Assembly: GCF_024223415.1 (NCBI RefSeq)
Contig: NZ_CP100500.1
Length of the DNA stretch: 64,000 nucleotides
Source: Escherichia coli
GTDB taxonomy: Bacteria > Pseudomonadota > Gammaproteobacteria > Enterobacterales > Enterobacteriaceae
Direction: 5' to 3' (one strand)
Position numbers and translations under genes: made by a program. Position 1 is the stretch's first letter, and each line of letters starts with the position of its first letter. This document shows positions 28,623 through 45,949 of this stretch, piece by piece. The notes under the pieces were generated by a model that was not told the DNA's origin, ran no database searches, and was given only the letters and a program-made list of their open reading frames with translations.

Positions 28623-28627
28623 GTATA

Positions 28628-29389
28628 TCAGTTTTGAGAATTTACACTTATGTCTGCCTCACGTAAGGCTTTATTTATTGCAATCAGAAGAGATAAGGCA
28701 CCGGGCGTATCACTATGGACACAGACAGAAGAGAAATGAATGTCAATATCCTGATCTTCTACAGTACGAACTTTTCCCTCCAGACAGGCACGCAGCACTT
28801 TTTTTGCGACATCATCAGGATTAAGAGGTTCAGTTCTCCGTATAAATACAATGGAACCGCTTTGATCATAATCCCTGTCGGCATAAAACTCACAAATAAC
28901 AGGATGTCCGATTTGCGTCGCTTCTTTCCAGATGGCACTACCATACATGCAATATATTCTCAATTCAGGCGCATAACTATGAAGCGTTGAGACAAAATGC
29001 TTTGCAGCATCCCGATCATGAGCAAGATGCATATACAACGCGCCATGAGGCTTAACATGGTTTACAGGCACATTGTGTAATGTGGCAAATTCACGCAAGG
29101 CCCCCAGCTGATAAATCATGTCATTGGTGATTTCCTCTGCGGTGCAGTGAATATGACGCCGGCCAAAACCAGCCAGATCACGATAACCGGGATGAGCACC
29201 GACAGACACACCACTGTCACGGGCGCTGATTATTGTACGGTGCATAATCCCCGGATCACCTGCATGAAAACCTGTCGCTATATTCGCTGAGGAGATGTAT
29301 GGCATAATATCAATATCCCGGATATCTCCGAGAGTCCATGCTCCAAAGCTTTCCCCCATATCAGAGCTGATATCAATACTGCGAAGCAT
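28628..29389 (-). CDS. LamB/YcsF family protein (5-oxoprolinase subunit A / PxpA-like)
   Basis: Start at MLRSIDISSDMGESFGAW with GGAGG Shine-Dalgarno; track ORF extends to 29437. Confidence 0.8.
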   Translation of the reverse strand: MLRSIDISSDMGESFGAWTLGDIRDIDIMPYISSANIATGFHAGDPGIMHRTIISARDSGVSVGAHPGYRDLAGFGRRHIHCTAEEITNDMIYQLGALREFATLHNVPVNHVKPHGALYMHLAHDRDAAKHFVSTLHSYAPELRIYCMYGSAIWKEATQIGHPVICEFYADRDYDQSGSIVFIRRTEPLNPDDVAKKVLRACLEGKVRTVEDQDIDIHFSSVCVHSDTPGALSLLIAINKALREADISVNSQN

Positions 29390-29531
29390 TAAAACCTCCG
29401 TCTGACAAATACGGTAACAGTATGTCATGTAGCACATTTGTTTCTTTATTGTAAATTATTATTTTTCTATGGTAATATATTAAATTTATTTATAATTACT
29501 GTTGCAAAAATATCTTTATCAGGAAAATTTG

Positions 29532-30467
29532 ATGAACATCACACTCAGACAGATAAAATATTTCGTATCAACAGCGGAGTCCGGATCGTTATCAACTGCA
29601 GCCAAATCACTCAATATTTCACAGTCTGCGATAACAACAGCAATTCAGGGGCTTGAAAGGGACATCGGTTATAAATTACTGATTCGCTCAAAATCTGGCG
29701 TTGATTTAACAGATGAGGGAAGACTGTTCTTATACAATGCCTACAATATTATCCGGACATATGATGAGGCAATAAATACAGTGCATGTTCAGAAGCCTTT
29801 GCATGGAACAGTTTCCATTGCGGCGACTTATACAATAATGGGATATTTTTTACCTGTTCATCTGAAACAATTTTCAAGAATTTATCCACATATAAAGCTG
29901 GAGCTTTTTGAAAATCAAAGAAGCATTATTGAAACCGGACTTCTCAGCGGAAAATATGATATTGGGATTGTAATCAATGATAATCTGACATGTCCCGATA
30001 TTGTATCAGAAACACTGTTACGGTCGGAGCGCCGTATATGGTTACCATCCGGCCACCCTCTGCTGGAAAAAGAAATTCTCTCCCTGAATGATATTGTCTC
30101 AGAGCCTTTTATTATCCTTGATGTGGATGAAGCATGGGAAACAGCAAAACGTTACTGGAATACGGCCAGTACCATGCCAGATGTAATTTTACATACGCAT
30201 TCTATTGAAGCTGTACGAAGTATGGTTGCGAATGATATGGGTATAACCATTCTTTCTGACATGGTTTATCGCCCATGGTCGCTTGAAGGGAAACGTATAG
30301 AAACACGCGCATTATCTAAATCAGAAGTTTTCCCAATGAGTATTGGCCTGGCATGGCGTAATAATGTTGAGTTTACGCCTGCAATGCAGGCTTTCATCAA
30401 TTATTTCAGAAAGATTTTTATGTGTTCTCCCGGTTATCAAAACCGGAATGTTGACCACTTTATCTGA
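29532..30467 (+). CDS. LysR-family transcriptional regulator, divergent from the carboxylase operon
   Basis: MNITLRQIKYFVSTAESGSLSTAAKSLNISQSAITTAIQGLE... (helix-turn-helix); track ORF begins 30 nt upstream. Confidence 0.85.
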   Translation: MNITLRQIKYFVSTAESGSLSTAAKSLNISQSAITTAIQGLERDIGYKLLIRSKSGVDLTDEGRLFLYNAYNIIRTYDEAINTVHVQKPLHGTVSIAATYTIMGYFLPVHLKQFSRIYPHIKLELFENQRSIIETGLLSGKYDIGIVINDNLTCPDIVSETLLRSERRIWLPSGHPLLEKEILSLNDIVSEPFIILDVDEAWETAKRYWNTASTMPDVILHTHSIEAVRSMVANDMGITILSDMVYRPWSLEGKRIETRALSKSEVFPMSIGLAWRNNVEFTPAMQAFINYFRKIFMCSPGYQNRNVDHFI

Positions 30468-30608
30468 TGTGTTAAAGACATCACTTTATTATTACCACTA
30501 TAGCTGAACTCATTGAAGATGATTAACTACTGTCTGCTCAGAGAAACGATGTAAAGTGAAATGTGAATACTCCTGACCAGAGTGTTGTTCCCTCTGTTAC
30601 CAGCCACC

Positions 30609-32102
30609 TCAGACCTTTACCAGCACCTGAGGGCAGTGATGGCGCAAACAGGTCAGAAGCGTGGCGAAAGCCTCTTCCATCTGCGCTTCCGGCAGACTCG
30701 CAAATCCCATCAACAGTCCTCTTTTACGCTGTGCTGTCAGGTAGTAAAGCGACAGCGGACGCACCAGTATATTTTGTGCATTGGCGCTGGCCGCAACCGC
30801 AACATCATCAACATCGTCCGGTAAATTTAATATCAGATGCAGCCCGGCATTATCGCTGAAATCTGACAGTGCCTGTGTTCCACAGTGACGTTCAATCAGT
30901 TCACCAAGAAAGGCGCGACGGCGACTGTACAGTAACCGCATACGGCGAATATGAGCAGAATAATGCCCTCCGTTGATAAACTCAGCCAGTGCCATCTGGA
31001 TCAGTGTATGCCCGCCACGATAAAGCTCAGCATGGGCACGTTTTAAAGCCTCTTTCAGCGGGCGCGGTAATACCAGATAACCCAGCCTCAGTCCGGGATA
31101 CACTGTCTTGCTGAAAGTACCAATATACACCACTGGTGCATCGTCAATAAGCCCCTGTAGTGCCGGAACTGGTTGACCGGAAAAGCGAAATTCACTGTCA
31201 TAATCATCTTCCACAATCCAGCTTCCATGCTGTCTGGCAAGGGCCAGCAAGCGTTGCCGTCGCTCAAGACTCATCACCACGCCCAGAGGGTATTGATGGG
31301 ATGGCGTGACGAAAATCAGCCTGGGAGGTGGCATCAGGCGTTCGGGAGGTACCAGACCACTGGCATCAACGGCAACAGGGGTGATCTGCACAGCATTCAT
31401 TGCCAGTACATGGCGTATTCCCCAGTAAGACGGCTCTTCCACCCATGCCATATCACCGGCATCTGCCAGCATGCGTGCAACAAGATCGATCGCCTGATGG
31501 ATACCTTCGGTGATAAGTATCTGATCAGCCTGACAGCGTACGCCACGCGCAATCCGTAAATAATCAACCAGTGCATGCTGTAATTCCGGTGTCCCTCCGG
31601 TACAGCTATAGCTCAGCCGCTCCGGCTCAGGACGGCGACTGATACGCGCCTGAATCCTGCTGAACAGGGGGTGGGGAAAGGCACTGACATCCGGGACGCC
31701 GGGAATAAATGCCCCCCACTGGCACGGACTGGCGCTGACATGCCGGAGCAGATAATCCCCGCGGTGAGAAACAGCAGAACTCAGCCTGGCATCTTCACTT
31801 TTTTCCGTGTTACTGAACGCCATTAAGAAGGTATCAGGAGCCGTCTGTGCGACGAATGTTCCGCTTCCACGACGTGATACCACATATCCTTCCGCCTGTA
31901 ATTGTTCATAAGTTGTTAATACTGTGTTTCTTGAGATTCCAAGTTCAACTGCAAGTTCCCTGGAGGCAGGGAGACGGCTGTGCGGCGGTAAAGAGCCATC
32001 GAGAATAGCATAGCGAAGCGCATTATAGAGCCGTTTGTGCAGAAGTTTATCCTGCTCCTGACCCATTCTGAACAGCAGCAGATCGCCTATGAATGCCCTC
32101 AA
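30609..32102 (-). CDS. MocR/GntR-family regulator with PLP-dependent aminotransferase-like domain
   Basis: N-terminal GntR helix-turn-helix (RLPASRELAVELGISRNTVLTTYEQLQAEGY) plus a long aminotransferase-fold domain; start may be the internal Met at 32066. Confidence 0.8.
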   Translation of the reverse strand: MRAFIGDLLLFRMGQEQDKLLHKRLYNALRYAILDGSLPPHSRLPASRELAVELGISRNTVLTTYEQLQAEGYVVSRRGSGTFVAQTAPDTFLMAFSNTEKSEDARLSSAVSHRGDYLLRHVSASPCQWGAFIPGVPDVSAFPHPLFSRIQARISRRPEPERLSYSCTGGTPELQHALVDYLRIARGVRCQADQILITEGIHQAIDLVARMLADAGDMAWVEEPSYWGIRHVLAMNAVQITPVAVDASGLVPPERLMPPPRLIFVTPSHQYPLGVVMSLERRQRLLALARQHGSWIVEDDYDSEFRFSGQPVPALQGLIDDAPVVYIGTFSKTVYPGLRLGYLVLPRPLKEALKRAHAELYRGGHTLIQMALAEFINGGHYSAHIRRMRLLYSRRRAFLGELIERHCGTQALSDFSDNAGLHLILNLPDDVDDVAVAASANAQNILVRPLSLYYLTAQRKRGLLMGFASLPEAQMEEAFATLLTCLRHHCPQVLVKV

Positions 32103-32220
32103 CTGGATCCCTCAGATAATCAAAATTGGTACTCGATTATAGTGCCATCGCCTGCCTAAATAAACAACACAGCGTCTCATTTGTTGCAGTTAAGTGACAT
32201 ATTTAACAGGAGAGTCGGGA

Positions 32221-33486
32221 ATGAAAAATTCTGAACTGAATCATCGTCGCCAGCAGGCGACTCCCCGTGGTGTGGGGGTAATGTGTGACTACTTTGTCGG
32301 GAAAGCGGAGAACGCCACGCTGTGGGATGTGGAAGGCAATGAAGTTATCGACTTTGCCGCCGGTATTGCCGTACTGAACACCGGCCATCGGCATCCAAAA
32401 ATTGTGGCGGCGGTAGAGCAGCAGTTGCAGTCGTTTACCCATACCGCTTATCAGATTGTCCCTTATGAGAGTTACGTTTCGCTTGCAGAACGTATTAATG
32501 CTGTCGCCCCTGTCGATGGACCTGCCAAAACGGCATTTTTTACCACCGGTGCCGAAGCAGTTGAAAATGCGGTGAAAATTGCGCGCGCATACACCGGTCG
32601 TCCGGGGATTATTACTTTTGGCGGTGGGTTCCATGGTCGTACATTCATGACCATGGCACTCACGGGCAAAGTCGCTCCCTACAAAACAGGGTTTGGCCCG
32701 TTCCCGGGCTCAGTTTACCACGCCGTCTATCCTAATGATGCCCATGGCATTTCCGTTGATGATGCTCTCAGGAGTCTTGATCGTATCTTTAAAGCAGATA
32801 TTCCTGCTGATCAGGTCGCCGCGATTGTACTGGAGCCCGTTCAGGGAGAAGGCGGGTTCAATGTCGCTCCGGCCGCTTTTATGCAGGCATTGCGTGAGTT
32901 GTGCGATACACACGGGATCCTGCTGGTTGCCGACGAAGTACAGACCGGTTTTGCCCGTACTGGCAGGCTATTTGCGATGCAGCACTACGCTGTGAAAGCC
33001 GATCTGATAACAATGGCGAAAAGTCTGGCTGGCGGCTTCCCGTTATCGGGGGTTGTGGGGCGTGCCGAAGTCATGGATGCCCCGGCTCCGGGAGGACTGG
33101 GAGGTACTTATGCCGGTAATCCGCTGGCAGTAGCTGCTGCGCATGCGGTGCTGGATATCATTGAAGAAGAACAGCTCTGCCAGCGTGCCGATCAACTTGG
33201 CGAACATCTGAAAGAGGTGCTCAGTCAGGCCCGGGCAGGATGTCCGGCAATTGCGGATGTGCGTGGACTGGGTTCAATGGTGGCAGTGGAGTTTAACAAT
33301 CCGCAAAGCGGTGAGCCGTCGGCGGAATATGCACGACAGGTACAGCACAAAGCCCGGGAAAACGGCCTGCTGCTGTTGAACTGTGGTATCTACGGTAACG
33401 TTATCCGTTTTCTCTACCCTTTAACAATCCCGGATGCTCAGTTCAGCAAAGCGCTGAATATTCTGACCCGAATTCTGCGTACCTGA
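32221..33486 (+). CDS. class III aminotransferase (4-aminobutyrate aminotransferase GabT-like)
   Basis: Start MKNSELNHRRQQATPRGV with AGGAGAG Shine-Dalgarno; strongly GabT-like throughout. Confidence 0.85.
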   Translation: MKNSELNHRRQQATPRGVGVMCDYFVGKAENATLWDVEGNEVIDFAAGIAVLNTGHRHPKIVAAVEQQLQSFTHTAYQIVPYESYVSLAERINAVAPVDGPAKTAFFTTGAEAVENAVKIARAYTGRPGIITFGGGFHGRTFMTMALTGKVAPYKTGFGPFPGSVYHAVYPNDAHGISVDDALRSLDRIFKADIPADQVAAIVLEPVQGEGGFNVAPAAFMQALRELCDTHGILLVADEVQTGFARTGRLFAMQHYAVKADLITMAKSLAGGFPLSGVVGRAEVMDAPAPGGLGGTYAGNPLAVAAAHAVLDIIEEEQLCQRADQLGEHLKEVLSQARAGCPAIADVRGLGSMVAVEFNNPQSGEPSAEYARQVQHKARENGLLLLNCGIYGNVIRFLYPLTIPDAQFSKALNILTRILRT

Positions 33487-33620
33487 TATGCACGGAAAAT
33501 TGCCACAACGGCAGGGAAGCCTTTCTTTCCCACGTGTCGTTTGTGCCAGGCGTGAGTGATTTATTCCTGATATCACCTTTTTCCGGCGGCAATAGTCGCC
33601 GGTGTAATACGGAATCTGTT

Positions 33621-34865
33621 ATGTCTGAAAATGCCACCTTTTCCCCTGAACAGTCATGCCGCAAACATACCGCTGCGCCGGCGAAATCCCTGAGTTTCGT
33701 TGAAGGTGTGTCGATGATTGTCGGCACGAACATTGGCGCAGGTGTACTGTCTGTGGCCTACGCCTCCGGTAAAGCCGGTTTTCTGCCGCTGTTATTCTGG
33801 CTCGTGCTGGTCGGGAGCCTGACCACCATAACCATGCTGTATGTGGCTGAATCGACTTTACGTACCCGTAAACATTTGCAGTTAAGCGGATTGTCACATC
33901 GTTATGTCGGACGCTGTGGCGCGCTGATAATGTTCCTTTCCGTCTGTGTGAACAGCGTTGGCGCTCTGATTGCATATATGAGCGGAAGCGGTAAGCTGCT
34001 GCACTCACTGCTGGGCATTTCTCCAGCTCTGGGTAGCATGTTATTTTTCATTCCCGCCGCAGGAGTGCTTTATCTCGGCCTGAAAGCGATAGGTCGCGGG
34101 GAAAAATTTATAAGTATCGGTATGGTGGTGATGCTCACTATCCTTATCGTCGCCACAATGCTGAAAGACACAACACAAATGCGTTACCTGCTGGATGGCA
34201 ACTGGCTGTATATGGTGCCGGTCTTTAACGTTGTGGCATTTTGTTTCTCGGCACAATATATTGTTCCGGAAATGGCGCGCGGTTTTTCTGATAAACCAGA
34301 AAAATTGCCGAAGGCAATTATGGTCGGGATGGGAATTACCTTCATTCTGCTGGCTCTGGTGCCTATGTCTGTCATAGCACTCAACGGGCTGGACAATATT
34401 TCTGATGTGGCGACCATTTCCTGGGGACGTGCGCTGGGTGAGTGGGCCTTTTTCTCTGCGAATCTGTTTGCTCTTTGCGCGATGCTGACTTCTTACTGGG
34501 GACTTGGTGGCAGTTTTCTGACCAATATCGTTGACCAGTTCAGTCCGGGCGATGACAGCCAGCCTCTAAGACGCTTTCTGTTACTGCTGATCGTTGTCAT
34601 ACCACCGTTTATTCTTGCTTATAGCGGCATGGTATCGTTTGTAAATGCGCTTTATTTTGCGGGGGTCTTCAGTGGCGTGGTCCTGTCTGTTATGCCCATT
34701 CTGATACTGAAAGGGGCGCGCCAGCACGGTGACCTGACACCTGGCTGGACGTGTCCTGCACTCATTATTCATCCGCTACTCCAGAGCTTTATTGTGTTGT
34801 TATATCTCTGTAGCGCTGCGTATGCAATTGCTTCTGCGCTGGGCCATCTCCCGGCAGGCTGGTAA
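33621..34865 (+). CDS. amino-acid permease (HAAAP-type)
   Basis: About 11 predicted transmembrane helices; start placed at MSENATFSPEQ; family assignment moderate. Confidence 0.65.
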   Translation: MSENATFSPEQSCRKHTAAPAKSLSFVEGVSMIVGTNIGAGVLSVAYASGKAGFLPLLFWLVLVGSLTTITMLYVAESTLRTRKHLQLSGLSHRYVGRCGALIMFLSVCVNSVGALIAYMSGSGKLLHSLLGISPALGSMLFFIPAAGVLYLGLKAIGRGEKFISIGMVVMLTILIVATMLKDTTQMRYLLDGNWLYMVPVFNVVAFCFSAQYIVPEMARGFSDKPEKLPKAIMVGMGITFILLALVPMSVIALNGLDNISDVATISWGRALGEWAFFSANLFALCAMLTSYWGLGGSFLTNIVDQFSPGDDSQPLRRFLLLLIVVIPPFILAYSGMVSFVNALYFAGVFSGVVLSVMPILILKGARQHGDLTPGWTCPALIIHPLLQSFIVLLYLCSAAYAIASALGHLPAGW

Positions 34866-35175
34866 ACATAAAGGAAAAGTATTATCGACCTCCTGTATAT
34901 TAAAATTGAGTTAGCATAGTGACGAACAGATTTGGCAGGGCATATGTAGCCTGCTCCCCTCCGGGGTTTAAAGCTCTTTTTGTAAGCAACGGGCGCATGT
35001 GCTGACCCACTCATTTGACATCATGACGGTTTATCTGTACGTCACCATAACGCATTTTATAAGAATGTTTTTTGTCCCATAACAGGTGTCCACTGGTTAA
35101 AAAGGTGGGCACCTGTCGTTACCAGTACTGGCTTAATTGCTACATACGGCTGTCGGTTTACGCTTACTTTCAACT

Positions 35176-35251
35176 TGTGGGTAAGGGGATGGAGTGCGAA
35201 TAAATGATCGAGCTTCGTGCGAATCACTGATCGAATACATCGGAATGCGCA
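35176..35251 (+). repeat. interspersed repeat copy A1 (TGTGGGTAAGGGGATG terminus followed by GATC-containing subrepeats)
   Basis: Closely similar to 59539..59591; subunits of form GTGCGAAT-N-GATCG. Confidence 0.6.
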
Positions 35252-35424
35252 CTCTGAAGCAAACTTAAAACATCTCTGCACCATTCCATGCACGCATAAA
35301 AGTCATTCCGGCATTTCATTTTACATAACATAAACAGAACAATAATAATTACAACAACATTCACACCAGCATTACAGAACACACTCTGTCTGTTGTTATC
35401 ACCAGAAATATCAGGAGTATTTAA

Positions 35425-36591
35425 ATGATTATTTCCTCACCTGCAGATTACAGGGACGCCGCAAAACACAGACTGCCACGCTTTCTTTTTGATTACATAG
35501 ACGGCGGGGCTGTTACTGAAAAAACCATGCATGAAAATATGACCTCTTTATCTTCGGTCAGCCTCCGGCAGCAGGTGCTTTGTGGCGCCGGAGCCCCCGA
35601 ACTGAACACCACCATCCTTGATTCAGAATGGGCCATGCCTGTTGCTCTGGGCCCCGTCGGTGCCACTGGCATGTACGCCCGTCGTGGAGAGGTGCAGGCA
35701 GCCAGAGCGGCCTCAGCAATGAACATCCCTTATACTCTCTCAACCGTCTCCGTCTGCCCGATCGAAGAGGTCGCCGGACACGCTGACGGGCAACTGTGGT
35801 CCCAGTTATACGTCCTTCGGGATCGTGGTTATATGCAAAACGCACTTGAACGCGCCTGGACTGCAGGTATGAAAACCCTGGTATTTACCGTCGACATGCC
35901 TGTGCCGGGCTCCCGGTACAGGGATAACCATTCAGGGATGTCAGGTCCCCACGCCACACTGCGTCAGTATCTTCAGGCCGTTCTTCATCCCCGCTGGGCG
36001 CTGGATGTGGGAATTGCCGGTCGTCCTCTGTCATTTGGTAACATCGAAACGTACACCGGGCATAAAATGTCGATGGATGACTATATGGGCTTTATCAGCA
36101 AAAACTTTGATCCCTCTATTGCATGGAACGATCTCGAATGGATCCGTGATGGCTGGAAAGGTAAACTGATAATAAAAGGGATCCTTGTTCCGGAAGATGC
36201 AAAAAATGCTGTACGGCTTGGCGCGGATGGCATCATTGTCTCCAATCATGGCGGACGTCAGCTTGATGGTGCCATCCCCACGGCCAGGGCATTACCGGCG
36301 ATAGCAGATGCAGTGGGTGATGACATCACGGTACTGGCGGATTCAGGTATTCGTTCCGGTGTGGATGTGGTCCGGATGCTTGCTCTGGGGGCAAAAGGTG
36401 TGCTGCTGGGAAGAGCGTATATTTACGCACTTGCCGCTGCGGGAAAAAAAGGCGTTGAGCACCTGCTCAGACTTTATGCTGAAGATATGAAAGTCACCAT
36501 GACGCTGATCGGCGCTTCTTCTCCCGCTGATATCAGCAGCAGAAATCTTGAATATCTGGAAAAAGAATTCTCCCGACATTCATCATCCTGA
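35425..36591 (+). CDS. FMN-dependent L-lactate dehydrogenase (LldD paralogue)
   Basis: 388 aa [29 protein letters not shown]...; alpha-hydroxy-acid oxidase fold motifs. Confidence 0.88.
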
Positions 36592-36667
36592 CCAAAGTAA
36601 ACCAGGCACATATCCTCCATGCTCCCGGGACAACAGAGCGCAGTTCGGGCACTACAGCCTTACTGGT

Positions 36668-36958
36668 TTACCAGTATGGTCTGCATTCAGAAGGGACCGA
36701 CAACAACTCAGCCAGCTCCGCCACAAGGCGGTTGGTTTCCAGTAATTTCCGCAGTCTCACCGAAAAATAGCCTTGTGCCACATCGTGATTTTCACAGGCT
36801 TCCCTGCGCGTCAGCCCCAGAACAAAATAATCCCTCAGCGCCAGGATAACCTTTTTACTGTTAACGGGAGAAAGCGCTGCAAGTATTTCAAAATGTGCAT
36901 CTGACATGCTTCCGGGCGTGTCATATATCCCGGCAACACGACTGTGATATATCCCCAC
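36668..36958 (-). CDS. PapB/FocB-family fimbrial-type transcriptional regulator (orphan)
   Basis: 96-aa ORF with PGSMSDAHFEILAALSPVNSKKVILALRDYFVLGLTRREACENHDVAQGYFSVRLRKL, resembling PapB. Confidence 0.55.
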   Translation of the reverse strand: MGIYHSRVAGIYDTPGSMSDAHFEILAALSPVNSKKVILALRDYFVLGLTRREACENHDVAQGYFSVRLRKLLETNRLVAELAELLSVPSECRPYW

Positions 36959-37839
36959 GGATACCCCCTGATTACCGCCTGCCCTTATTCCCCGGGAGAC
37001 TGAGAACAGGCTGAGATATAAGTATATTTATATAATATTATATTTCGGATTATTCGCAGAATACTGAAAAAACCGGTCGGGTCAACCGCAGGAAAACAGA
37101 AAGAGCCTGTAATAACGCATAGAAACGATATTTAAAACCAGAACAACCATCAAAAACAGAACATAAAGTCACAAAAACCGTCAAAAACGACCAGGTACTG
37201 CATTTTTAACACCTTTTTTAAATTTTGGTATCTTTACAAAAAACACCACCTGAAAATCATTTATTTAATTAAATAAAGTAAATTGCTTAGCCTGATAAAT
37301 ATTGTTCTGCAACACTCCGGTTCAGGCAGAATGTATTTTCATGGCTTACCCATTCAGGCGTAAATGCGATATTCCGCACATGACAGAGACCACACAAAGA
37401 AAAACAGGCGCAGACAGCCGGATACAGGATAAATTAACACTTCACAATCCGGCATTATTACGCTACAACATTCACGGGCAACTGCCCTTGTAACGAAAAC
37501 TTCCTTAATTTGGGTATTTGTGTGCCGTACGTCTGTGGTGTACGGCTTTTTTTCATTTTTTTATAATTTCTATAAATAAAGATATAATCAATACGTATAT
37601 ACCGTCGTATAAGATCCTTCTTCACCTTTCATTAAAAAGATCCGGAACAAAACAGACGATGAGATTGTGGTACTACCAGATTTACACCCTTACTCCGGAT
37701 AATTCACAAATCCTGAAATTACGACCTTCCTCCCGTTGCCGGACTGAAACAATATGCAGACACTCTGACGGACATGTCAGCAATGCACTCGCTCTCTGCT
37801 GTACAGGTATTACACCATACTTCACCAGGAGGTCTGTTC

Positions 37840-39483
37840 ATGGATATCTGGTCACAGGACTATGATCCCGTCGGAAATATCTGGCTGTCCAGCCTGACAG
37901 CATCGCTTCCCATTCTGTTTTTTTTCTTTGCCCTGATTAAGCTGAAGCTTAAAGGCCATGTTGCTGCCACATGGACTGTCATTATCGCGCTCATCGTGGC
38001 CCTTCTTTTTTATAAGATGCCTCTCACAGCCGCACTCGCTTCCGTGCTCTATGGTTTCTTCTATGGCCTGTGGCCCATTGCCTGGATAATTATTGCCGCA
38101 GTTTTTGTTTATAAAATTTCTGTAAAAACCGGACAGTTCGATATCATTCGCGCTTCAGTGCTGTCCGTTACGCCTGATCAGCGTATTCAGATGCTGATTG
38201 TGGGGTTTGCCTTTGGTGCCTTTCTCGAAGGGGCCGCCGGTTTTGGAGCACCTGTGGCCATAACAGCAGCACTGCTCGTGGTGCTTGGGTTCAGACCACT
38301 TTACGCGGCCGGGTTGTGTCTGATCGTCAATACAGCTCCCGTGGCCTTTGGTGCGATGGGGATCCCCATTCTCGTCGCAGGCCAGGTTACCGGGCTGGAC
38401 AGCTTTGAAATCGGTCAGATGGTTGGTCGTCAGTTACCCTTCCTGACCATTATTGTGTTGTTCTGGATCATGGCAATTATGGATGGCCTGCGTGGCATTA
38501 AGGAAACCTGGCCCGCCGTTCTGGTTGCCGGAGGTTCCTTCGCCATAGCCCAGTTTCTCAGTTCCAACTTTCTGGGCCCGGAGCTCCCGGACATCATATC
38601 ATCACTGGTGTCGCTGGTTTGTCTGACGCTTTTCCTGAAACGCTGGCAGCCTGTACATATTTTTCGCTTTGACAACACCCCGTACCAGAATACGGACTCA
38701 TCACCACTGAGCCGTTCACAGGTGATACGGGCATGGTCGCCATTTCTGTTTCTGACTGCCACGGTGACACTCTGGAGTCTTCCTCCCTTTAAAACACTGT
38801 TCGCACCGGGCGGTACACTGCATGACCTGGTGATTACTGTTCCTGTGCCGTATCTTGATAAACTCATTGCACGTATGCCTCCGGTAGTCAGCGAAGCCAC
38901 TGCTTATGCCGCGGTGTTTAAGTTTGACTGGTTCTCTGCCACCGGTACCGCCATCCTGTTTGCAGCATTGCTCTCTGTGATCTGGCTGAAGATGAAACCG
39001 TCAGATGCTGTCAGCACCTTTGGCAGTACACTGAAAGAACTTGCCCTGCCCGTCTATTCCATCGGCATGGTGCTGGCTTTCGCCTTTATCTCTAATTATT
39101 CGGGGCTTTCATCCACACTTGCCCTGGCTCTGGCACAGACAGGCAGCGCCTTTACGTTCTTCTCACCGTTTCTGGGCTGGCTGGGCGTATTTCTGACGGG
39201 ATCAGATACCTCATCCAATGCATTATTTGCATCACTCCAGGCAACGGCAGCTCATCAGATCGGGGTCTCCGATATTCTGATGGTTGCCGCCAACACCACA
39301 GGGGGAGTAACCGGCAAAATGATTTCTCCACAGTCCATTGCCATCGCCTGCGCAGCAACCGGACTTGTTGGCAAAGAATCAGAACTCTTTCGTTTTACTG
39401 TTAAACACAGCCTGATCTTCACCTGTATTGTGGGAGTCATCACCTCTCTCCAGGCATGGGTATTCACCTGGATGATCCCATGA
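37840..39483 (+). CDS. L-lactate permease (LldP/GlcA family paralogue)
   Basis: Start [39 protein letters not shown]...; LldP-like over full length; track ORF begins 66 nt upstream. Confidence 0.9.
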
Positions 39484-39658
39484 AATATTTGTTGTGCCGG
39501 ATCTTTTCCGGCATGATGATGTGTGTTACAGCCTCTGGCTTATAACACTCTGCAGTAGTGCTGGCTGACGTGACTGCCGGATATTCTGGTTTTCTTAAGT
39601 CACGGATATACTGACGACAGGGTTTCACATTCAATATTCAACTGACAGGTATGTTTAT

Positions 39659-40951
39659 ATGGCACACCGCTACCTGACACGACAGGATCACAGGACCTTA
39701 TCTCTGGCTGCGCTCGGAGGCGCACTTGAATTCTATGACTTCATCATTTTTGTTTTTTTCGCCGCCGTCATTGCTGAGCTCTTTTTCCCGCCGGATATAC
39801 CGGAATGGCTCCGTCAGCTCCAGGCATTTGGTATATTTGCTGCCGGGTACCTGGCACGACCTCTCGGCGGAATAATTCTGGCCCATTTTGGCGATATACT
39901 TGGGCGAAAGAAAATGTTCACCCTGAGTATTTTGCTTATGGCAGTACCGACACTTGTTATCGGTATTTTGCCAACCTACAGCTCTGTGGGTACCCTGGCT
40001 CCTGTGCTGCTTCTTCTGATGCGTCTGCTTCAGGGCGCAGCGATTGGCGGTGAAGTGCCCGGTGCCTGGGTTTTTGTTGCTGAGCATGTACCGGAGCGCC
40101 GAACCGGTATTGCATGCGGAACACTGACAGCAGGTTTAACCGCCGGGATCCTGCTTGGTTCAGTGGTTGCCACACTTGTCAATTCAGTATTGTCTCAGGA
40201 TATTGTTTACGATTACGGCTGGCGATTCCCCTTCCTTCTTGGTGGTGTTTTTGGCCTGGCAGCAATGTACCTGCGCCGCTGGCTGGAGGAAACTCCGGTA
40301 TTTCTGGAAATGAAAGCCAGAAAAAAACTGGCTCAGGAATTACCGGTAAAAGCTGTCGTTTTAAGACATAAAAAAGCTGTTGTGATTTCCATGCTGTTGA
40401 CATGGCTGATATCCGCAGGGATTATTGTGGTGATACTGATGGCACCGGTCTGGTTACAGAAACAGTATGACTTTTCGCCGACAGTCACCTTACAGGCTAA
40501 CAGCATTGCAACTATTATGCTGAGTCTGGGATGCCTGCTGGCCGGTATGGCCATTGATTCTTTTGGTGCCGGAAAAACCTTTATATCAGGCAGTATTCTG
40601 CTTGGATGTTCAGGATGGCTGTTCTATCACACTGTCGGTGAGTATCCTGAAATGTTGTTCTGGCTGTATGGGCTAGCGGGATTCAGTGTGGGCATTGTCG
40701 GGGCCGTCCCTTATGTTCTCGTGCGTATTTTCCCCGCAGAGGTCAGGTTTACCGGCATTTCATTCTCTTACAATGTCGCTTATGCAGTGGTGGGGGGACT
40801 GACTCCTGTTGTGGTCACGATGTTAACGGAAATCTCCCCGATGGCTCCAGCATGGTATGTTATGCTGTTATCACTTGTGGGATCAGGACTGGGAATATGG
40901 TTCTGCAGGGATCCCCGTCTTTTTATCTGTCACGCAGACAAAGACAAATAA
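39659..40951 (+). CDS. MFS transporter (metabolite:H+ symporter family)
   Basis: 430 aa, 12 predicted helices, MFS motif GDILGRKK. Confidence 0.8.
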   Translation: MAHRYLTRQDHRTLSLAALGGALEFYDFIIFVFFAAVIAELFFPPDIPEWLRQLQAFGIFAAGYLARPLGGIILAHFGDILGRKKMFTLSILLMAVPTLVIGILPTYSSVGTLAPVLLLLMRLLQGAAIGGEVPGAWVFVAEHVPERRTGIACGTLTAGLTAGILLGSVVATLVNSVLSQDIVYDYGWRFPFLLGGVFGLAAMYLRRWLEETPVFLEMKARKKLAQELPVKAVVLRHKKAVVISMLLTWLISAGIIVVILMAPVWLQKQYDFSPTVTLQANSIATIMLSLGCLLAGMAIDSFGAGKTFISGSILLGCSGWLFYHTVGEYPEMLFWLYGLAGFSVGIVGAVPYVLVRIFPAEVRFTGISFSYNVAYAVVGGLTPVVVTMLTEISPMAPAWYVMLLSLVGSGLGIWFCRDPRLFICHADKDK

Positions 40952-41260
40952 TGTTTCACCGTTATATAACGGTATCATTCAGTTTTTAAAAATGGCGACA
41001 GGTTAACCTGTCGCCATCCGGTCAGATGCTCACCAGACCGCGCCCCCCATCAGTCTCCATATCCTCCCCCTTGCCCTGCCGGATGATAGCGCCACGCGAC
41101 ATCACCAGGTAGTGGTCCGCCGTAATGTTCCGGTGAAATCGTCCTGACACGTTTCCGGGCTCGTTATCAGCGGTTTTTGCGAATGATCGCCGCCCTGCGA
41201 TGGTTGATTTATTTTATTGCGCCCCGGCGTCTGCCTTGCCAGGTACCGGAGGCGGGCTCT

Positions 41261-41360
41261 GAAGTACTGAGTAGGGTGAGCGCGTCAGGCCACGAAGTAC
41301 TGACACGGGAGTTTGTGGCAGGCAGTGAAGTCCTGACCAGGGTAAGGGAGGGGCTGACGT
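41261..41360. repeat. three degenerate 33-bp tandem direct repeats beginning GAAGT(A/C)CTGA
   Basis: Units start at 41261, 41294 and 41327. Confidence 0.6.
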
Positions 41361-41580
41361 GCATGCCCTGACTGTCAGCCAGGGCGCGTGGTGACTGACT
41401 TTCTCAATAACCCGCTGTCAGGCGCTCAACGCCCGACAGCAGGCCATGGCCCGGTGTGCAAAGACCTGACGGCAGGCCTTGTGTCACCCGGATAAGGTAA
41501 ATCCCTCAAGAGGCAGCAACTCAGCCAGTCGGTCCTCAGGCCACTCCGGCAGGCGCGTCAGTACGTCCGTCAGCCAGGCA

Positions 41581-41692
41581 TGTTGCAAAATCGCATCGTG
41601 TTCGATCGCCGATTCGCATCGTACTCGATCGCTGATTCGCATTGTCCGATCATTGATTCGCATCCTGCAGTCACTCCTGGAATTAACTTTTC
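41581..41692 (+). repeat. repeat copy B1: putative IS21-family left terminal region with three GATC-containing about 21-bp subrepeats
   Basis: Starts TGTTGCAAAATCGCATCG; subunits GATTCGCATCG-N-GATCGC; lies about 150 bp upstream of istA. Confidence 0.5.
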
Positions 41693-41733
41693 TGCATAGT
41701 CTCTACTGCTGAATTTTCTTCTCAGTAGAGGTC

Positions 41734-43269
41734 TTGATGGCTAAAAAGAAAATCTCCCGGAGTTCTATGGAAACCTGTTTAAAAATTCTCCAACTTAAGT
41801 TCGAGCAGCATCAGACAAACCGGACTATCGCACTTACACTGAACATCAGTCCCTCGACTGTTTCCGATGTATTGTCCCGCTTTAAGAACACGTCAATATC
41901 GTGGCCTTTGCCTGAATCGATGACAACTCAACGTCTTGAGGTGCTTATCTTTCCTGGCAAGCAAGCCCCGGAAATGACGCCGGCACTGCCTGACTGGCTC
42001 TACATTGATACCGAACTACGTCGTGTGGGAGTCACTCGTCAGCTCTTATGGATGGAATACAAACATCAGGCTGGTGAATATGCTCTGGGATACTCACAGT
42101 TCTGTCGTCGTTATCTGCACTGGAAAAAAAGCGTGCGTTACTCCATGCGGCAGGAACATCGTGCTGGTGAAAAACTCTTTATCGACTTCTGTGGTCCTAC
42201 AGTCCCTGTTGTTAATCCGGAAACCGGAGAAGAACGCAGAGTGGCCATCTTTGTAGCCGTGATGGGAGCATCTAACTATACCTATGTTGAAGCGTGCGAA
42301 GGTCAGGATCTGATGTCGTGGCTAAACGCCAACAGCCGATGTCTGACCTTCCTTGGTGGTGTACCAAAACTGCTGATCCCGGATAACCTTAAAAGTGCTG
42401 TCAAAAAAGTCGATCGCTACGAACCGGTCATCAATGAGAGTTACCAAGCATTCGCAGAGCACTACAATACAGTGATACTCCCAGCAAGACCAAGAAAACC
42501 AAAGGATAAAGCGAAAGCCGAAACGGCTGTACTTATCGTCGAACGATGGCTGCTTGCCCGCATTCGCAACGAGACCTTCTTTACACTCAGGAGCCTGAAC
42601 AGTCGTCTACGCGAGTTGTTGGTAGAGCTGAATAACCGTCCCATGAAAGGATACGGCAACCAGACGCGTGCAGAGCGTTTTGCCCTGCTGGATGCCCCTG
42701 CATTATCAGCCCTGCCAGTATCAGAGTATGAGTTCGCTGAATACAAAACGGTGAAAGTTGCACCTGATTACCATGTTGAATACGCCCACCACTGGTACTC
42801 AGTACCTCATGAACTGATCGGACAACGGTTATCCCTGAAAGCCACTCAGACAGTGATCCAACTCTGGCATCAGGGGCAATGCGTGGCACAACATCCGCGC
42901 AGCCTCCATGAGTACAAGCACACGACCAACCCTCTACACATGCCTGCAGCACATCAGGCACACAGCAGATGGACACCGGAAAGTCTTCAGGAAGCAGCCA
43001 GAAAGATAGATCCTTATACAGCAATGACAGTGGATAGCATGCTGAACAGTAAACGTCATCCTGAACAGGCTTACCGGACAGTCCTGGGGCTGCTGAGCCT
43101 GAAAAAACACTATGGTCGTGAGCGTCTGGAAAAAGCCTGTCATGTTGCCCGGGAGTGCAGAACGTCGGAAAGAAGGTTCATCGAAAACCTTCTGCGTAAT
43201 AACAGGGAAAACCTTTCCCTCCGGAAAAAGAGAGGCAGACGGAGGGAAACGTATCAAAAATCCAGTTAA
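41734..43269 (+). CDS. istA: IS21-family transposase IstA (orphan; no istB downstream)
   Basis: 511 aa with N-terminal helix-turn-helix and DDE integrase core; sequence typical of IstA. Confidence 0.85.
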   Translation: MMAKKKISRSSMETCLKILQLKFEQHQTNRTIALTLNISPSTVSDVLSRFKNTSISWPLPESMTTQRLEVLIFPGKQAPEMTPALPDWLYIDTELRRVGVTRQLLWMEYKHQAGEYALGYSQFCRRYLHWKKSVRYSMRQEHRAGEKLFIDFCGPTVPVVNPETGEERRVAIFVAVMGASNYTYVEACEGQDLMSWLNANSRCLTFLGGVPKLLIPDNLKSAVKKVDRYEPVINESYQAFAEHYNTVILPARPRKPKDKAKAETAVLIVERWLLARIRNETFFTLRSLNSRLRELLVELNNRPMKGYGNQTRAERFALLDAPALSALPVSEYEFAEYKTVKVAPDYHVEYAHHWYSVPHELIGQRLSLKATQTVIQLWHQGQCVAQHPRSLHEYKHTTNPLHMPAAHQAHSRWTPESLQEAARKIDPYTAMTVDSMLNSKRHPEQAYRTVLGLLSLKKHYGRERLEKACHVARECRTSERRFIENLLRNNRENLSLRKKRGRRRETYQKSS

Positions 43270-43395
43270 TACGCGTGATGACTGCCTGCATCACGTTTTC
43301 ACCCGTCATGATTTTCTTTTTCACGGCCTCTCCGTCATCTTCAGTTCACACCTTTGTATAAAAAACAGGGCGTGATACACATCACGCCCTGCGCT

Positions 43396-44391
43396 TCAGT
43401 GGCTGATTTTTTTCAGCTGTTCTTCACTCAGCCCCGTAATTTTCATGATTGTCTGGAAACCCATCCCTTCAGCCAGCATATTACGCGCGGTTTCCAGTTT
43501 GCCTTCCAGTTGTCCTTCGAGTCGACCTTCGGCACGGCCTTCCATTCTGCCTTCCATTCTGCCTTCCAGCTTACCACGCTCCATACCCTGCGCCATGCCC
43601 AGCGCAATGCCTTCCTCGCGTCCGCTCTGCTTCAGTTGTTCAGCCAGTGTCATTATGTTGCCCTCGTGCTGTGGCAGCCGCTCCGCCAGCGTCTGCAAAA
43701 ACCTTACCGTCACATGTTCACTGCCGTTCAGCAGATAGTGGAACAGAACCTGCGCCAGCTCTTCATTCAGCGAAGTCTGTATCAGCTGAACCAGCCTGTC
43801 CATCTGCAGCATGATGTCGCGGCTGCGGCTGTGTTTCATCAGCAGCGTCAGTGCCCCCATACGACGGTGCTGCATTATTTCATCGTCATCCAGTACCGTC
43901 ACGTCCACCAGGTGGAACGGTCTGGTGTAGATTTTAGCAGCAAGTTCCGGATTTCTGAAACACTCCAGCCAGTTCATGCTGTACGGGTACGGACTCCGCT
44001 CACCGTGGTAGAATAACAGCGGGATCACCAGCGGCAGCTCATGGTGCTGTTCAAAGTGACGCTGCATCGCCGCCACCGCATATCTGAGCATCCTGAACGC
44101 CATAAACGCGTTTTCCGTGCTCTGGTGTTCCGCGAGGCAATAAATATACCCCTCCTCACCGCTGACGGTCTTCATGCTGAACAGCGCATCGCACGCATAC
44201 TGTTTCAGATCCTGGTCCACAAAGGTACAGGGCTCCAGCCGCAGCGTTGACAGATCACACAGCTGCCGGTATTCCGCCGGAAGATGCAGTTCAACAAAAT
44301 CACGGGCCACCTCTGCGGAGGCCATAAACGCCCTGAAGGCAGCATCATGCGGCGTGGGGGTATTTTTCTCTTTCCTGCTGCTCACCGTCAT
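43396..44391 (-). CDS. Rpn-family recombination-promoting nuclease / putative transposase (YhgA-like)
   Basis: 331 aa; PD-(D/E)xK-like N-terminal region; C-terminal tandem GRMEG/GRAEG/GRLEG/GQLEG repeats. Confidence 0.75.
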   Translation of the reverse strand: MTVSSRKEKNTPTPHDAAFRAFMASAEVARDFVELHLPAEYRQLCDLSTLRLEPCTFVDQDLKQYACDALFSMKTVSGEEGYIYCLAEHQSTENAFMAFRMLRYAVAAMQRHFEQHHELPLVIPLLFYHGERSPYPYSMNWLECFRNPELAAKIYTRPFHLVDVTVLDDDEIMQHRRMGALTLLMKHSRSRDIMLQMDRLVQLIQTSLNEELAQVLFHYLLNGSEHVTVRFLQTLAERLPQHEGNIMTLAEQLKQSGREEGIALGMAQGMERGKLEGRMEGRMEGRAEGRLEGQLEGKLETARNMLAEGMGFQTIMKITGLSEEQLKKISH

Positions 44392-44506
44392 CCACTCAAC
44401 TGTCCGGTATCACTCTTTTTTGCAATCATACCAGCCGTAACCATTTCAGTCACCGGTGCAGCCTCCGCCTGAAACCTGTACCGGAGAGAATAACATCGCG
44501 AATGGC

Positions 44507-45061
44507 TTAGCGGATGATGCCGGCCATCACAGGCCAGGATAACGAAAGGCACGCGTTTCTGAATGCCCTGAGTGGCTCAGCGCCTTCAGGTGTGGCTGCA
44601 CGCACCACCCTGTAACAGCATACCACCGTACACTGCCCTTCTGGTGTGAGTGTGGTGCCGGCCTGTTGCAGTAACGCCACCAGGAGCGAATCAGCTGTTA
44701 GGCCGGATCCCGGTGGGCAAATGAGATCCTGGCTGATCAGCAACAGACAACGTATCCCGGTGCTGTCTGTCGTTTCCCGCAGCCAGCGTAACACCACCGG
44801 CAGTAACGGATATCCGGCATGGCTTCGCTGATTCAGCTGTCTGTAAAATGCCCGGTAAAACGCATGAATCTGCCCCCCGTCACGATTTCCTCCTGTTGAA
44901 TGAAGTGTGAACTGAACGGCCAGCAGACGCGGCCAGTGATCCACCGCCTGCTGAATAAAACGCCGGATTTCCACCGGCTCTGAAAGTACGGTTTCGGTTA
45001 TCTGCACGATTTGCTCTCTTTGAATGTTTCTGAACCGGTGTCGGTGCACAGGGAAACGCAT
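44507..45061 (-). CDS. YagK/YfjJ-family (inovirus Gp2-like) protein, divergent copy lacking the His-hydrophobic-His motif
   Basis: HWPRLLAVQFTLHSTG resembles the family N-terminal motif, but the HxH position reads IRCLLLISQD. Confidence 0.45.
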   Translation of the reverse strand: MRFPVHRHRFRNIQREQIVQITETVLSEPVEIRRFIQQAVDHWPRLLAVQFTLHSTGGNRDGGQIHAFYRAFYRQLNQRSHAGYPLLPVVLRWLRETTDSTGIRCLLLISQDLICPPGSGLTADSLLVALLQQAGTTLTPEGQCTVVCCYRVVRAATPEGAEPLRAFRNACLSLSWPVMAGIIR

Positions 45062-45125
45062 ACCCACACCACCACGCATACCCGGTCACAGCGTCACCGC
45101 CGTAAACTGCGACCGGGAACGCGCA

Positions 45126-45548
45126 TTACAGCAACGAATTGTCCGTCCCGGTATCTTCCATCAGGGGCTCCCGGCGTTCCCTGCTGTACAGCCCGCTTCC
45201 ACACCCCGGGCAGACCTTTTCTCCTTCATAGCTTTCATCACACATCACACAAAACCACCTTCTTACCTTCACCGCATAATCAGGCACCAGCATGCCCTGC
45301 AGATACACACGACGGGATTCTTTCTCTGCCGGGTCAAGCCAGGTACATCGCAGGAGAACTTTCTCAGAGACCGTCATCTGGTCATGTTCAAACCACGGTG
45401 GTTGTCCGTCCGTGCCCCGCTTAAGCGTTAACGGGCAACCACAGGACACACAGCACAAAACGTCCTGGCGGTTGTGCTCCGCAGCTTCTTTCGCGGTGAC
45501 AAAATGGCCCTTGCTGTCATTCGCCATATAGCAGTTCAGAATTCGCAT
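45126..45548 (-). CDS. zinc-ribbon protein, paralogue B
   Basis: CCVSCGCPLTLKRGTDGQPPWFEH and C-terminal CVMCDESYEGEKVCPGCG; start placed at MRILNCY. Confidence 0.5.
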   Translation of the reverse strand: MRILNCYMANDSKGHFVTAKEAAEHNRQDVLCCVSCGCPLTLKRGTDGQPPWFEHDQMTVSEKVLLRCTWLDPAEKESRRVYLQGMLVPDYAVKVRRWFCVMCDESYEGEKVCPGCGSGLYSRERREPLMEDTGTDNSLL

Positions 45549-45562
45549 ATCCCCCCCTGAGC

Positions 45563-45949
45563 TTAAGCTGTCCGGGAAATACTGAAGCGCCCGGTCCGGC
45601 AGTGTGTGCAGTACTGCTCCCCATAATAATCGTGGTGACATTGTCTGCAGTGCCGGCTGGCTTTACGCACCACGGGTAAGGCATCCGGTACAAACTGCCG
45701 TAAGCGTTTAATCAGTTGCACCTCCCTGCGCTCAGGCTGTACGTAAGGACACTGCTGACCGTGCTCCGTCAGCCCTTCGTCAGTGTGTTCAAACCAGGGG
45801 CGTTCAGTGTTGTATTGCGGGTGGTATCTGAGCGCACTGCCGCAAAGGTGGCAGGTGTAGCGGTCGTAAGGTGCAGTCTGTGCGGTACGGGCACCGGTCA
45901 GACGTCCGTTGCCATCAAACGCGAGAAAAGATTTTGCGTACATCGTCAT
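45563..45949 (-). CDS. zinc-ribbon protein, paralogue A
   Basis: CHLCGSALRYHPQYNTERPWFEH and C-terminal CRQCHHDYYGEQYCTHC. Confidence 0.5.
   Translation of the reverse strand: MTMYAKSFLAFDGNGRLTGARTAQTAPYDRYTCHLCGSALRYHPQYNTERPWFEHTDEGLTEHGQQCPYVQPERREVQLIKRLRQFVPDALPVVRKASRHCRQCHHDYYGEQYCTHCRTGRFSISRTA

Follow-up and report, generated by a model that had tools for sequence, protein, structure and literature searches.

The lldD2–papB–lldP2 interval of this Escherichia coli genome is probably mosaic cargo of a mobile island, composed of three units of separate ancestry, and not a reshuffled lldPRD operon. In the window (the whole 64-kb stretch of DNA that was analyzed), the open reading frames confirm the gene order given by the first-pass annotation: an lldD-like gene on the plus strand (lldD2, 35425–36591; 388 aa, FMN-dependent alpha-hydroxy-acid dehydrogenase of the L-lactate type), a PapB/FocB-family orphan regulator gene on the minus strand (hereafter papB, 36668–36958; 96 aa, Pfam PapB) and an lldP-like gene on the plus strand (lldP2, 37840–39483; 547 aa, L-lactate permease). 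The long AT-rich spacers that had been described are indeed present upstream of lldD2 (34866–35424; 559 bp, 41% GC) and between papB and lldP2 (36959–37839; 881 bp, 39% GC), the GC content of the window overall being 50.4%, but lldD2 and papB converge on a gap of 76 bp with 55% GC.

The reported absence of lldR also held: a tblastn search of the 64-kb window with E. coli LldR as the query gave a single match, to the GntR-type HTH of a MocR regulator (31851–32042), and revealed neither lldR nor a relic of it. The P-R-D order in a single transcription unit with LldR is not found here. As proposed, the lactate genes are second copies: a chimeric query joining the island spacer to canonical lldR detected the latter at a separate place in all 11 complete genomes that bear the island, so that the locus is not the sole lld copy. 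The literature, searched by protein accession and for PapB together with lldD, yielded no description of this locus.

Upstream, an amino-acid transporter gene (33621–34865), 3′ of a gabT-like gene, precedes the spacer in front of lldD2. Downstream, a gene for an MFS metabolite/H+ symporter-type transporter (39659–40951, plus strand) starts 176 bp 3′ of lldP2; it is the final intact cargo gene, with IS debris beyond. A single weak terminator-like hairpin (39489–39519) lies between this gene and lldP2, and the two are possibly co-transcribed.

The dehydrogenase and permease genes

LldD2 is recognized by Pfam FMN_dh (PF01070; 421 bits) and, narrowly, by the NCBIfam LldD model NF033901 (596 bits for a cutoff of 550), and the catalytic residues Y24, Y129, D157, R164, K251, H275 and R278 are all invariant in the alignment. 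Both lactate genes had been called highly similar to the chromosomal ones. In fact, LldP2 is 86% identical to E. coli chromosomal LldP, and LldD2 is only 63% identical to E. coli chromosomal LldD and 61–64% identical to canonical LldDs generally; the canonical enzymes of E. coli and Klebsiella share 91% identity. The closest relatives of LldD2 (79–88% identity) form a separate clade with members from Klebsiella, Enterobacter (one gene) and other islands (two genes), the Klebsiella member being a solitary core gene that adjoins sufA. With 62–63% identity to the canonical lldPRD-encoded enzyme as against 79–88% to this solitary clade, LldD2 does not behave as an ortholog of the former and, judged from these values, belongs to a distinct LldD clade. 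At the DNA level, homology of lldD2 to its clade relatives is confined to the coding sequence (35396–36569). A scan of 100,044 species genomes, of limited sensitivity since it relied on exact 8-residue words, retrieved the known Klebsiella gene only, and no characterized member of the clade was found in the literature searched.

One of the relatives (L006, 88% identical) sits directly 3′ of an afa-like chaperone-usher operon. We rejected a connection of lldD2 with fimbrial operons and consider this adjacency a coincidence, because a PapB homologue is absent there and the flanks are unrelated.

LldP2 matches Pfam Lactate_perm (PF02652; 754 bits) and the NCBIfam LldP equivalog NF007740 (1089 bits for a cutoff of 918), and its score with the GlcA model is under the cutoff of that model. 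The reading frame is open from 37774; the start at ATG 37840, with the SD sequence CCAGGAGG, is supported by the PGAP start, and homology to canonical lldP begins at 37823. The gene is 76% identical to E. coli lldP in DNA, and the protein is equidistant from all the canonical Enterobacteriaceae LldPs compared (86–88% identity), which are 92–95% identical among themselves. By this measure LldP2 is an outlier within the canonical LldP clade, for which no donor could be identified among the relatives compared.

An orphan PapB-family gene

The PapB-family gene is intact. Its product scores 94.1 bits with Pfam PapB (PF03333; gathering score 29.4) over profile positions 18–89 of 91, and it matches the FocB structure 3m8j with E=5.6e-14. 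Its TRREAC segment aligns with SRKDVC of FocB, and the equivalents of Arg61 and Cys65 of PapB, both needed for DNA binding in that protein (PMC7734786), are kept. The start is GTG 36958 (96 aa), with an SD sequence, AGGGGG, 5 nt upstream, and PGAP uses this 96-aa call in strain 673; frequently, PGAP starts the gene at ATG 36907 (79 aa), and a conserved PGSMS motif is encoded 5′ of that codon. Codon 68 (about 36755) specifies Arg in the window in place of Ser, a change private to this copy.

The protein forms a cluster of its own, with next relatives at no more than 57% identity in an HMMER search of 1.84 billion representatives, and a word-indexed search of 5.8 billion proteins retrieved nothing but its island variants. 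No close relative was detected by a pattern scan of one genome per species (100,044 species), whose sensitivity is limited by the use of exact 8-residue words. A plasmid collection held no copy of the island locus, the best plasmid-borne PapB-like relative being 52% identical. A stretch of 114 bp inside papB shares 74% identity with daaA.

The gene had been described as an orphan fimbrial-type regulator, and this description stands. No fimbrial, PapD or PapC similarity was revealed in the 64 kb by tblastn or by a check of the right part of the window, and fimbrial genes are likewise absent from the 45 kb that are annotated and from the 20 kb around the gene in a reference genome. papB is not the first gene of a chaperone-usher operon, since the end of the convergent lldD2 lies 76 bp downstream. 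Nor is there a divergent partner of the papI type: none of the small open reading frames in the spacer matches a Pfam family at E≤10, and a papI-like or other coding gene there was rejected on these grounds and for want of a convincing ribosome-binding site. The locus thus offers a PF03333 gene outside an adhesin cluster, on a mobile element and in a low-GC patch, like the orphan paralogues of the pMB2 type.

Intergenic regions

In the spacer upstream of lldD2, about 100 bp (35064–35167) match transposase- or IS66-annotated sequence present in about 2800 E. coli genomes (about 89% identity). An AfaR sRNA was considered at this place and rejected, as the match (27.7 bits for a gathering score of 100, E=0.078) overlaps the widespread IS66-type fragment; no other Rfam family was detected across 34500–40000. 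The spacer also contains an 18-nt direct repeat with a GATC (35194–35234).

The papB–lldP2 spacer is unique to the island, and no DNA relatives of it were found in our searches. It contains an imperfect 25-nt direct repeat upstream of papB (37133–37188) and, about 290 bp before lldP2, an intrinsic-terminator-like hairpin on the plus strand (37524–37553; GCCGTACGTCTGTGGTGTACGGC then TTTTTTT, 10 pairs), which is predicted to insulate lldP2 from upstream transcription. Just past it lies a predicted sigma-70-like promoter (37560–37588, plus strand; TTTATA-17-TATAAT, 10/12), a candidate for lldP2; a similar element (35320–35349, plus strand; TTTACA-18-AATAAT, 10/12) stands 75 bp before the lldD2 start. 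Note that the promoters and the terminator were called from consensus matches only, and that shuffled sequence would be expected to give as many promoter-like sites.

The upstream region of canonical lldP carries AATTGGCCCTACCAATT and AATTGGCAGTGCCACTT; at up to 3 mismatches, LldR operators (AATTGGN5CCAATT-like) are found in neither island spacer. A search for LldR/PdhR, FNR and CRP sites yielded a lone weak CRP-like site (37365–37380, 2 mismatches). The only GATC sites of the papB–lldP2 spacer, at 37613 and 37639, are 26 bp apart, and a paired GATC/Lrp phase switch of the pap type is not present in it.

Distribution of the island

The 5-kb locus is 99.8–100% identical in the 11 complete E. 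coli genomes that carry it, out of 5426, and the adjoining block 24000–35424 is restricted to the same 11. Its surroundings vary: cydDC is the neighbor of the island in the window, as in strain 673, and cadC in AR_0085, where Ag43, CbtA/YeeU, an integrase remnant and IS66 surround it. Several copies bear insertions, namely an IS3 that interrupts lldD2 in GF60, an IS3 within the spacer upstream of lldD2 in TUM9803, an IS903B within the papB–lldP2 spacer in strain 673 and an IS66 in the 5′ end of papB in a draft genome (allele P0003); in allele P0002, the PapB-like protein has a replaced C-terminus. Because the island copies are nearly identical, conservation cannot show selection on the three genes or on the spacer in E. 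coli.

Origin of the arrangement

Homology ends at the borders of the coding sequences and an IS fragment lies 5′ of lldD2; the interval therefore has the features of a mosaic junction, not of a modified operon, and the first-pass view of the lactate genes as a displaced, lldPRD-derived pair does not survive, the dehydrogenase being from a different clade. According to our reading, lldD2 would be an intact dehydrogenase gene from a clade whose members usually occur alone; papB, intact and with an AT-rich upstream region of its own, would have been separated from any chaperone-usher genes; and lldP2 would encode a divergent permease of the canonical type whose lldR and lldD partners were lost or never present. 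lldP2 and papB may come from one shared donor. Stitched-together assembly of this sort is ordinary for such islands. lldD2 and lldP2 would be driven separately, each from a promoter in the AT-rich spacer before it, and, because the LldR operator is absent, both would be outside LldR control. Together, LldD2 and LldP2 could provide auxiliary uptake and oxidation of L-lactate or a related 2-hydroxy acid.

A duplication of lldPRD, with the operon copied and reordered to D…P and lldR replaced by an inserted regulator gene, is scarcely credible. It is true that each product scores above the threshold of its family, LldD or LldP, and that each gene is an extra copy, but neither a remnant of lldR nor its operators are found, lldP2 is just 76% identical to E. 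coli lldP in DNA and equidistant, as a protein, from the Enterobacteriaceae LldPs, and the assignment of LldD2, on protein identity, to a different and usually solitary clade rules this origin out. It is possible, though we hold it unlikely, that papB and its upstream spacer are an inert leftover, that is, the 5′ end of a chaperone-usher operon whose structural genes were lost when lldD2 joined 76 bp downstream, now silent or neutral and decaying. Indeed, papB heads fimbrial operons in its relatives, and here the convergent 3′ end of lldD2 fills the position of the major subunit; the disrupted alleles P0003 and P0002, the private non-synonymous Ser68Arg change in the window and an AT-rich flank that may be prone to H-NS binding all agree with decay. 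Yet papB retains a full reading frame, a GTG start behind a good SD sequence and every conserved motif, although its relatives are at most 57% identical, and would therefore have been under purifying selection until recently. In addition, remnants of fimbrial genes are undetectable by tblastn in the window, and published orphan PapB paralogues act in trans (PMC7734786).

The divergent arrangement of papB and lldP2 around an intergenic region of about 0.9 kb also fits a local regulator–target pair, in which the PapB-family protein would replace LldR and control lldP2, perhaps also lldD2, through the AT-rich intergenic region; lactate use would then come under regulation of the adhesin or phase-variable type. 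In favor of this are an intact protein that retains its DNA-binding residues, the imperfect 25-nt repeat, which could form a binding array, and the lack of any other dedicated regulator next to lldP2; moreover, non-fimbrial genes can be targets of the family, as for TosR (cited in PMC12922286). We nevertheless consider such co-option improbable: a predicted strong plus-strand terminator and a separate consensus promoter stand between papB and lldP2, of the three closest PapB relatives that we examined, two stand first in chaperone-usher operons, and the protein searches and species scan revealed no other genome with a PapB–lld association. Moreover, pap-type paired GATC sites are absent, and natural IS insertions separate papB from lldP2 (strain 673) or truncate papB in islands that are otherwise intact. 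An elaborate form of the idea is quite improbable as well; it takes the PapB-family protein, freed from fimbrial genes, as the recruited local regulator of an LldR-independent module for lactate uptake and oxidation, lactate use being switched with or against adhesins, and supposes that the promoter-to-terminator unit divergent from papB (about 37240–37553) might supply a partner, RNA or small protein, where papI would stand. Control of the lactate genes by the PapB-like protein is thus unlikely; if expressed, the protein would most likely target promoters of fimbriae or adhesins in trans, in the manner of other orphan PapB paralogues.

Comparison with known systems and implications

With E. 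coli lldPRD (lctPRD), the island locus shares a Lactate_perm permease (86%) and an FMN-dependent LldD-type enzyme with all catalytic residues; it differs in the D…P order of its genes, which lie 1.2 kb apart as separate units, in the absence of lldR and LldR operators, and in a dehydrogenase of another clade (62%). The solitary LldD2-clade genes (the core gene by sufA of Klebsiella pneumoniae, variicola and quasipneumoniae, that of Enterobacter hormaechei and those of other E. coli islands) resemble lldD2 in length class and sequence (80–88% identity) and stand without lldP or lldR, whereas lldD2 is mobile, with unrelated flanks, an IS fragment upstream and a permease gene 1.2 kb downstream.

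The island papB has the domain of the operon-head regulators PapB, FocB (3M8J), DaaA and AfaA and keeps the DNA-binding Arg and Cys, its product being about 48% identical to plasmid PapB, but it lacks a downstream subunit, chaperone and usher, a papI-like partner and a paired GATC/Lrp switch. It resembles, by description, the orphan papB/pefB paralogue of pMB2, whose effect on host adhesion is exerted in trans (Monarrez and Okeke 2020, PMC7734786): both are PF03333 genes that lie apart from adhesin clusters, in low-GC patches of mobile elements beside nutrient-acquisition genes, and both have the equivalent of PapB C65, although the pMB2 gene sits on an F-type plasmid and the present one on a chromosomal island. 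The first-pass annotation had found an orphan regulator of this type unusual; such paralogues have been published from mobile elements before (PMC7734786), and the locus adds another case.

Current understanding is left unchallenged by this arrangement, for which a junction formed during the assembly of a mobile island is the best reading. It does call for caution in annotation, as the PGAP name "LldD" spans two clades that are about 62% identical, the second being a Klebsiella core gene. Lactate is plentiful in the gut and at infection sites. If the genes are active, E. coli with the island (isolates from humans, poultry and meat) would have another route, outside LldR control, for lactate or a related 2-hydroxy acid, and an extra trans-acting PapB paralogue could bias fimbrial cross-talk.

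Intact genes, additional to lldPRD

All three genes of the locus are intact. lldD2 (35425-36591, + strand) encodes an FMN-dependent alpha-hydroxy-acid dehydrogenase of 388 aa (Pfam FMN_dh, 421 bits; NCBIfam LldD, 596 bits for a cutoff of 550), the PapB-like gene, papB (36668-36958, - strand), a protein of 96 aa (Pfam PapB, 94 bits for a gathering score of 29.4; FocB structure sequence 3m8j, E=5.6e-14), and lldP2 an L-lactate permease (Lactate_perm, 754 bits; NCBIfam LldP equivalog, 1089 bits for a cutoff of 918). The lldP2 reading frame (37774-39483, + strand) is open from 37774 and its similarity to canonical lldP starts at 37823; its start is ATG 37840, which is preceded by the Shine-Dalgarno sequence CCAGGAGG, coincides with the PGAP start and gives a product of 547 aa. 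PGAP usually gives papB 79 aa, from ATG 36907. The 96-aa form is the likely product because the 79-aa form starts only after a conserved PGSMS motif, AGGGGG stands 5 nt before the GTG at 36958, and the annotation of strain 673, which carries the same island, uses the 96-aa form.

The first-pass annotation had taken the lactate genes for second copies lacking lldR, and both points held. A chimeric query made of island-specific spacer and canonical lldR, run on complete E. coli genomes, gave matches at two distinct positions in every one of the 11 island genomes; its spacer part had no match beyond the island and 5420 of the 5426 genomes have a canonical lldR, so the island genes are additional to lldPRD. 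On the window, tblastn with LldR found no lldR, the sole match being the generic GntR-type HTH of a MocR regulator.

A near-clonal mobile island

Of 5426 complete E. coli genomes, 11 carry the 5-kb locus, always in the chromosome and with 99.8-100% identity. These 11 alone also have the neighbouring cargo, at about 100% identity, namely a pxpA/biotin-carboxylase cluster and its LysR regulator, the MocR regulator, a gabT-like transaminase and an amino-acid transporter. The first of these (24626-30467), comprising pxpA (LamB/YcsF), biotin carboxyl carrier, biotin carboxylase, PxpB/PxpC-like subunits, DUF1097 and the divergent LysR gene, is a 5-oxoprolinase-like or carboxylase module. The island has at least two sites in the chromosome, since it adjoins cydDC in the window (1-4000) and in strain 673 but cadC (cadCBA) in strain AR_0085 (compared at 40525-45001 of its region), where Ag43, CbtA/YeeU-type toxin-antitoxin genes, an integrase remnant and IS66 lie around it. 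Near-identical copies in the same 11 genomes with different chromosomal neighbours show that the island is mobile, near-clonal and recently spread. It is not vanishingly rare, as the exact LldP2 protein occurs on at least 1000 contigs of draft and metagenome data.

For most of the window's right-hand part (40000-64000), none of the complete E. coli genomes in the collection gives a full-length match. A cluster at 47126-51142 (KdgT-type permease, DUF1537-type (SBD_N/NBD_C) four-carbon acid-sugar kinase, PdxA-like dehydrogenase, DeoR regulator) looks like a threonate/erythronate-type catabolic module. The following block (51430-57822: Zn-dependent alcohol dehydrogenase, aldehyde dehydrogenase, sigma-54 activator, Na+:alanine symporter) matches a single complete genome, NCTC9699, at 99.3% identity. 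A TOTE conflict-system protein with archaeo-eukaryotic primase and helicase domains (59604-61955, - strand), grouped with YfjI/YagK-type and DUF7828/zinc-ribbon genes (44507-46748), forms a defence-type module at the right end of the island.

Lactate genes of different type

The two lactate genes had been described as a metabolic pair in non-canonical order, highly similar to the chromosomal enzymes; by our comparisons they are not a displaced pair. LldD2 shares 62-63% identity with the canonical LldD of E. coli and with that of Klebsiella (91% between these two), but 80-88% with members of a second clade. The Klebsiella pneumoniae, variicola and quasipneumoniae gene of this clade is core and solitary, flanked by sufA and an RND efflux operon (10001-11185 of the loci), in addition to a normal lldPRD; it is annotated 'LldD' despite about 63% identity to the canonical enzyme, and we found no characterisation of it in the literature. 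Further members occur alone in an IS1-flanked E. coli island, and one in another genome has a LysR gene as its neighbour and an afa-like fimbrial operon upstream. DNA similarity of lldD2 to all these relatives ends at the borders of the coding sequence (35396-36569). The catalytic set (Y24, Y129, D157, R164, K251, H275 and R278) is invariant. LldP2, by contrast, falls within the canonical LldP clade, albeit as an outlier: its identity to the E. coli, Salmonella, Enterobacter and Klebsiella proteins is 86-88%, against 92-95% among those proteins themselves, so that it is about as distant as Pectobacterium or Erwinia LldP; a search for its donor found none. The "pair" is thus a solitary-type dehydrogenase beside an operon-type permease without its partners.

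Spacers and insertion scars

Of the long AT-rich spacers reported initially, the one between papB and lldP2 (36959-37839; 881 bp, 39% GC) is indeed such, whereas lldD2 and papB are separated by 76 bp of 55% GC; the stretch upstream of lldD2 (34866-35424) spans 559 bp at 41% GC, and the entire window has 50.4%. The canonical lldP promoter region contains two palindromic operators, AATTGGCCCTACCAATT and AATTGGCAGTGCCACTT; neither spacer holds a similar LldR-type operator at up to 3 mismatches.

The locus shows signs of assembly and of weak constraint. A fragment of about 100 bp in the upstream spacer (35064-35167, in the stretch 35064-35182) has about 89% identity to sequence that some 2800 E. 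coli genomes carry with an IS66-family or 'transposase' annotation. In strain GF60, lldD2 is split by IS3; IS3 lies upstream of lldD2 in TUM9803 and IS903B between papB and lldP2 in strain 673. The papB 5' end is truncated by IS66 in a draft genome, and another papB allele has its C-terminus replaced. The IS66-type fragment also accounts for a sub-threshold Rfam AfaR hit upstream of lldD2 (27.7 bits, E=0.078) that overlaps it; the overlap suggests some resemblance between this repeat and part of the AfaR model.

Two repeat pairs are possible protein-binding arrays: a direct repeat, GTGCGAATNANTGATCGA, present twice upstream of lldD2 (35194-35234; 23-bp spacing, GATC in each), and an imperfect 25-nt repeat with CAAAAAC motifs upstream of papB (37133-37188; 31-bp spacing). 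Two predicted consensus promoters (37206-37234 and 37233-37260, + strand) and a strong predicted intrinsic terminator (37524-37553, + strand) bound a unit of about 300 nt (37206-37553), divergent from papB and at the papI position. It contains a 63-aa ORF (37302-37493) with no Shine-Dalgarno sequence and no Pfam or Rfam match, has an RNA fold z-score of -2.6, and may be an sRNA or a small-protein gene, or nothing at all.

The orphan PapB-like gene and the nature of the locus

By its sequence, the PapB-like gene is genuine and intact, and it is an orphan, as the first-pass annotation had proposed. The protein is a bona fide PF03333 member whose context lacks what is usual for fimbrial PapB regulators: no similarity to a fimbrial subunit, chaperone or usher was found in the window, and the convergent lldD2 end fills the slot expected for the major subunit gene. 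Its best relatives beyond the island are 57%, 52% and 49% identical (52% for the best plasmid-borne one), and its DNA resembles daaA over only 114 bp (74% identity). Among the three nearest relatives, two stand at the head of typical chaperone-usher operons; the nearest of all is on a short contig that also carries traT fragments and an autotransporter gene but nothing recognisable as fimbrial. The window's copy has Arg (AGA) at codon 68 (about 36755) versus Ser in all other island copies (FSVRLRKL vs FSVSLRKL), a non-synonymous change that is the sole difference in 1248 bp and falls within the helix region aligned to FocB. Such an orphan is less unusual than first supposed, for orphan PapB paralogues on mobile elements are a published category, into which the gene fits.

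We consider the locus to be probably mosaic cargo. lldD2 would be transcribed from a candidate sigma-70-like promoter (35320-35349, + strand) found by consensus scan. The same scan predicts the strong terminator and, directly after it, a near-consensus promoter (37560-37588, + strand), so that lldP2 would be shielded from transcription on the papB side and form a unit of its own, perhaps shared with the MFS gene downstream. Together, the two genes would add LldR-independent uptake and oxidation of lactate or of a 2-hydroxy acid. It is unlikely that the PapB-like protein has been co-opted as a local regulator. It keeps the equivalents (TRREAC vs SRKDVC in FocB) of Arg61 and Cys65, which are reported, as quoted in PMC7734786, to be essential for DNA binding by PapB. 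The locus lacks the features typical of a pap-type switch, since there is no papI-like ORF near papB and the only two GATC sites of the papB-lldP2 spacer are 26 bp apart, beside the predicted lldP2 promoter. More improbable by far is a rearranged lldPRD: the locus shares components with that operon but none of its organisation. Within the mosaic, the PapB-like protein may be either an orphan acting in trans on fimbrial promoters, by analogy with the pMB2 paralogue for which this is described in PMC7734786, or a silent relic.

No description of the locus was found in the literature searched. It adds to kinds already known, and what is of interest beyond that is small: an uncharacterised second LldD clade, a predicted promoter-to-terminator unit in the spacer, and the possibility that a PapB-like protein touches lactate genes.
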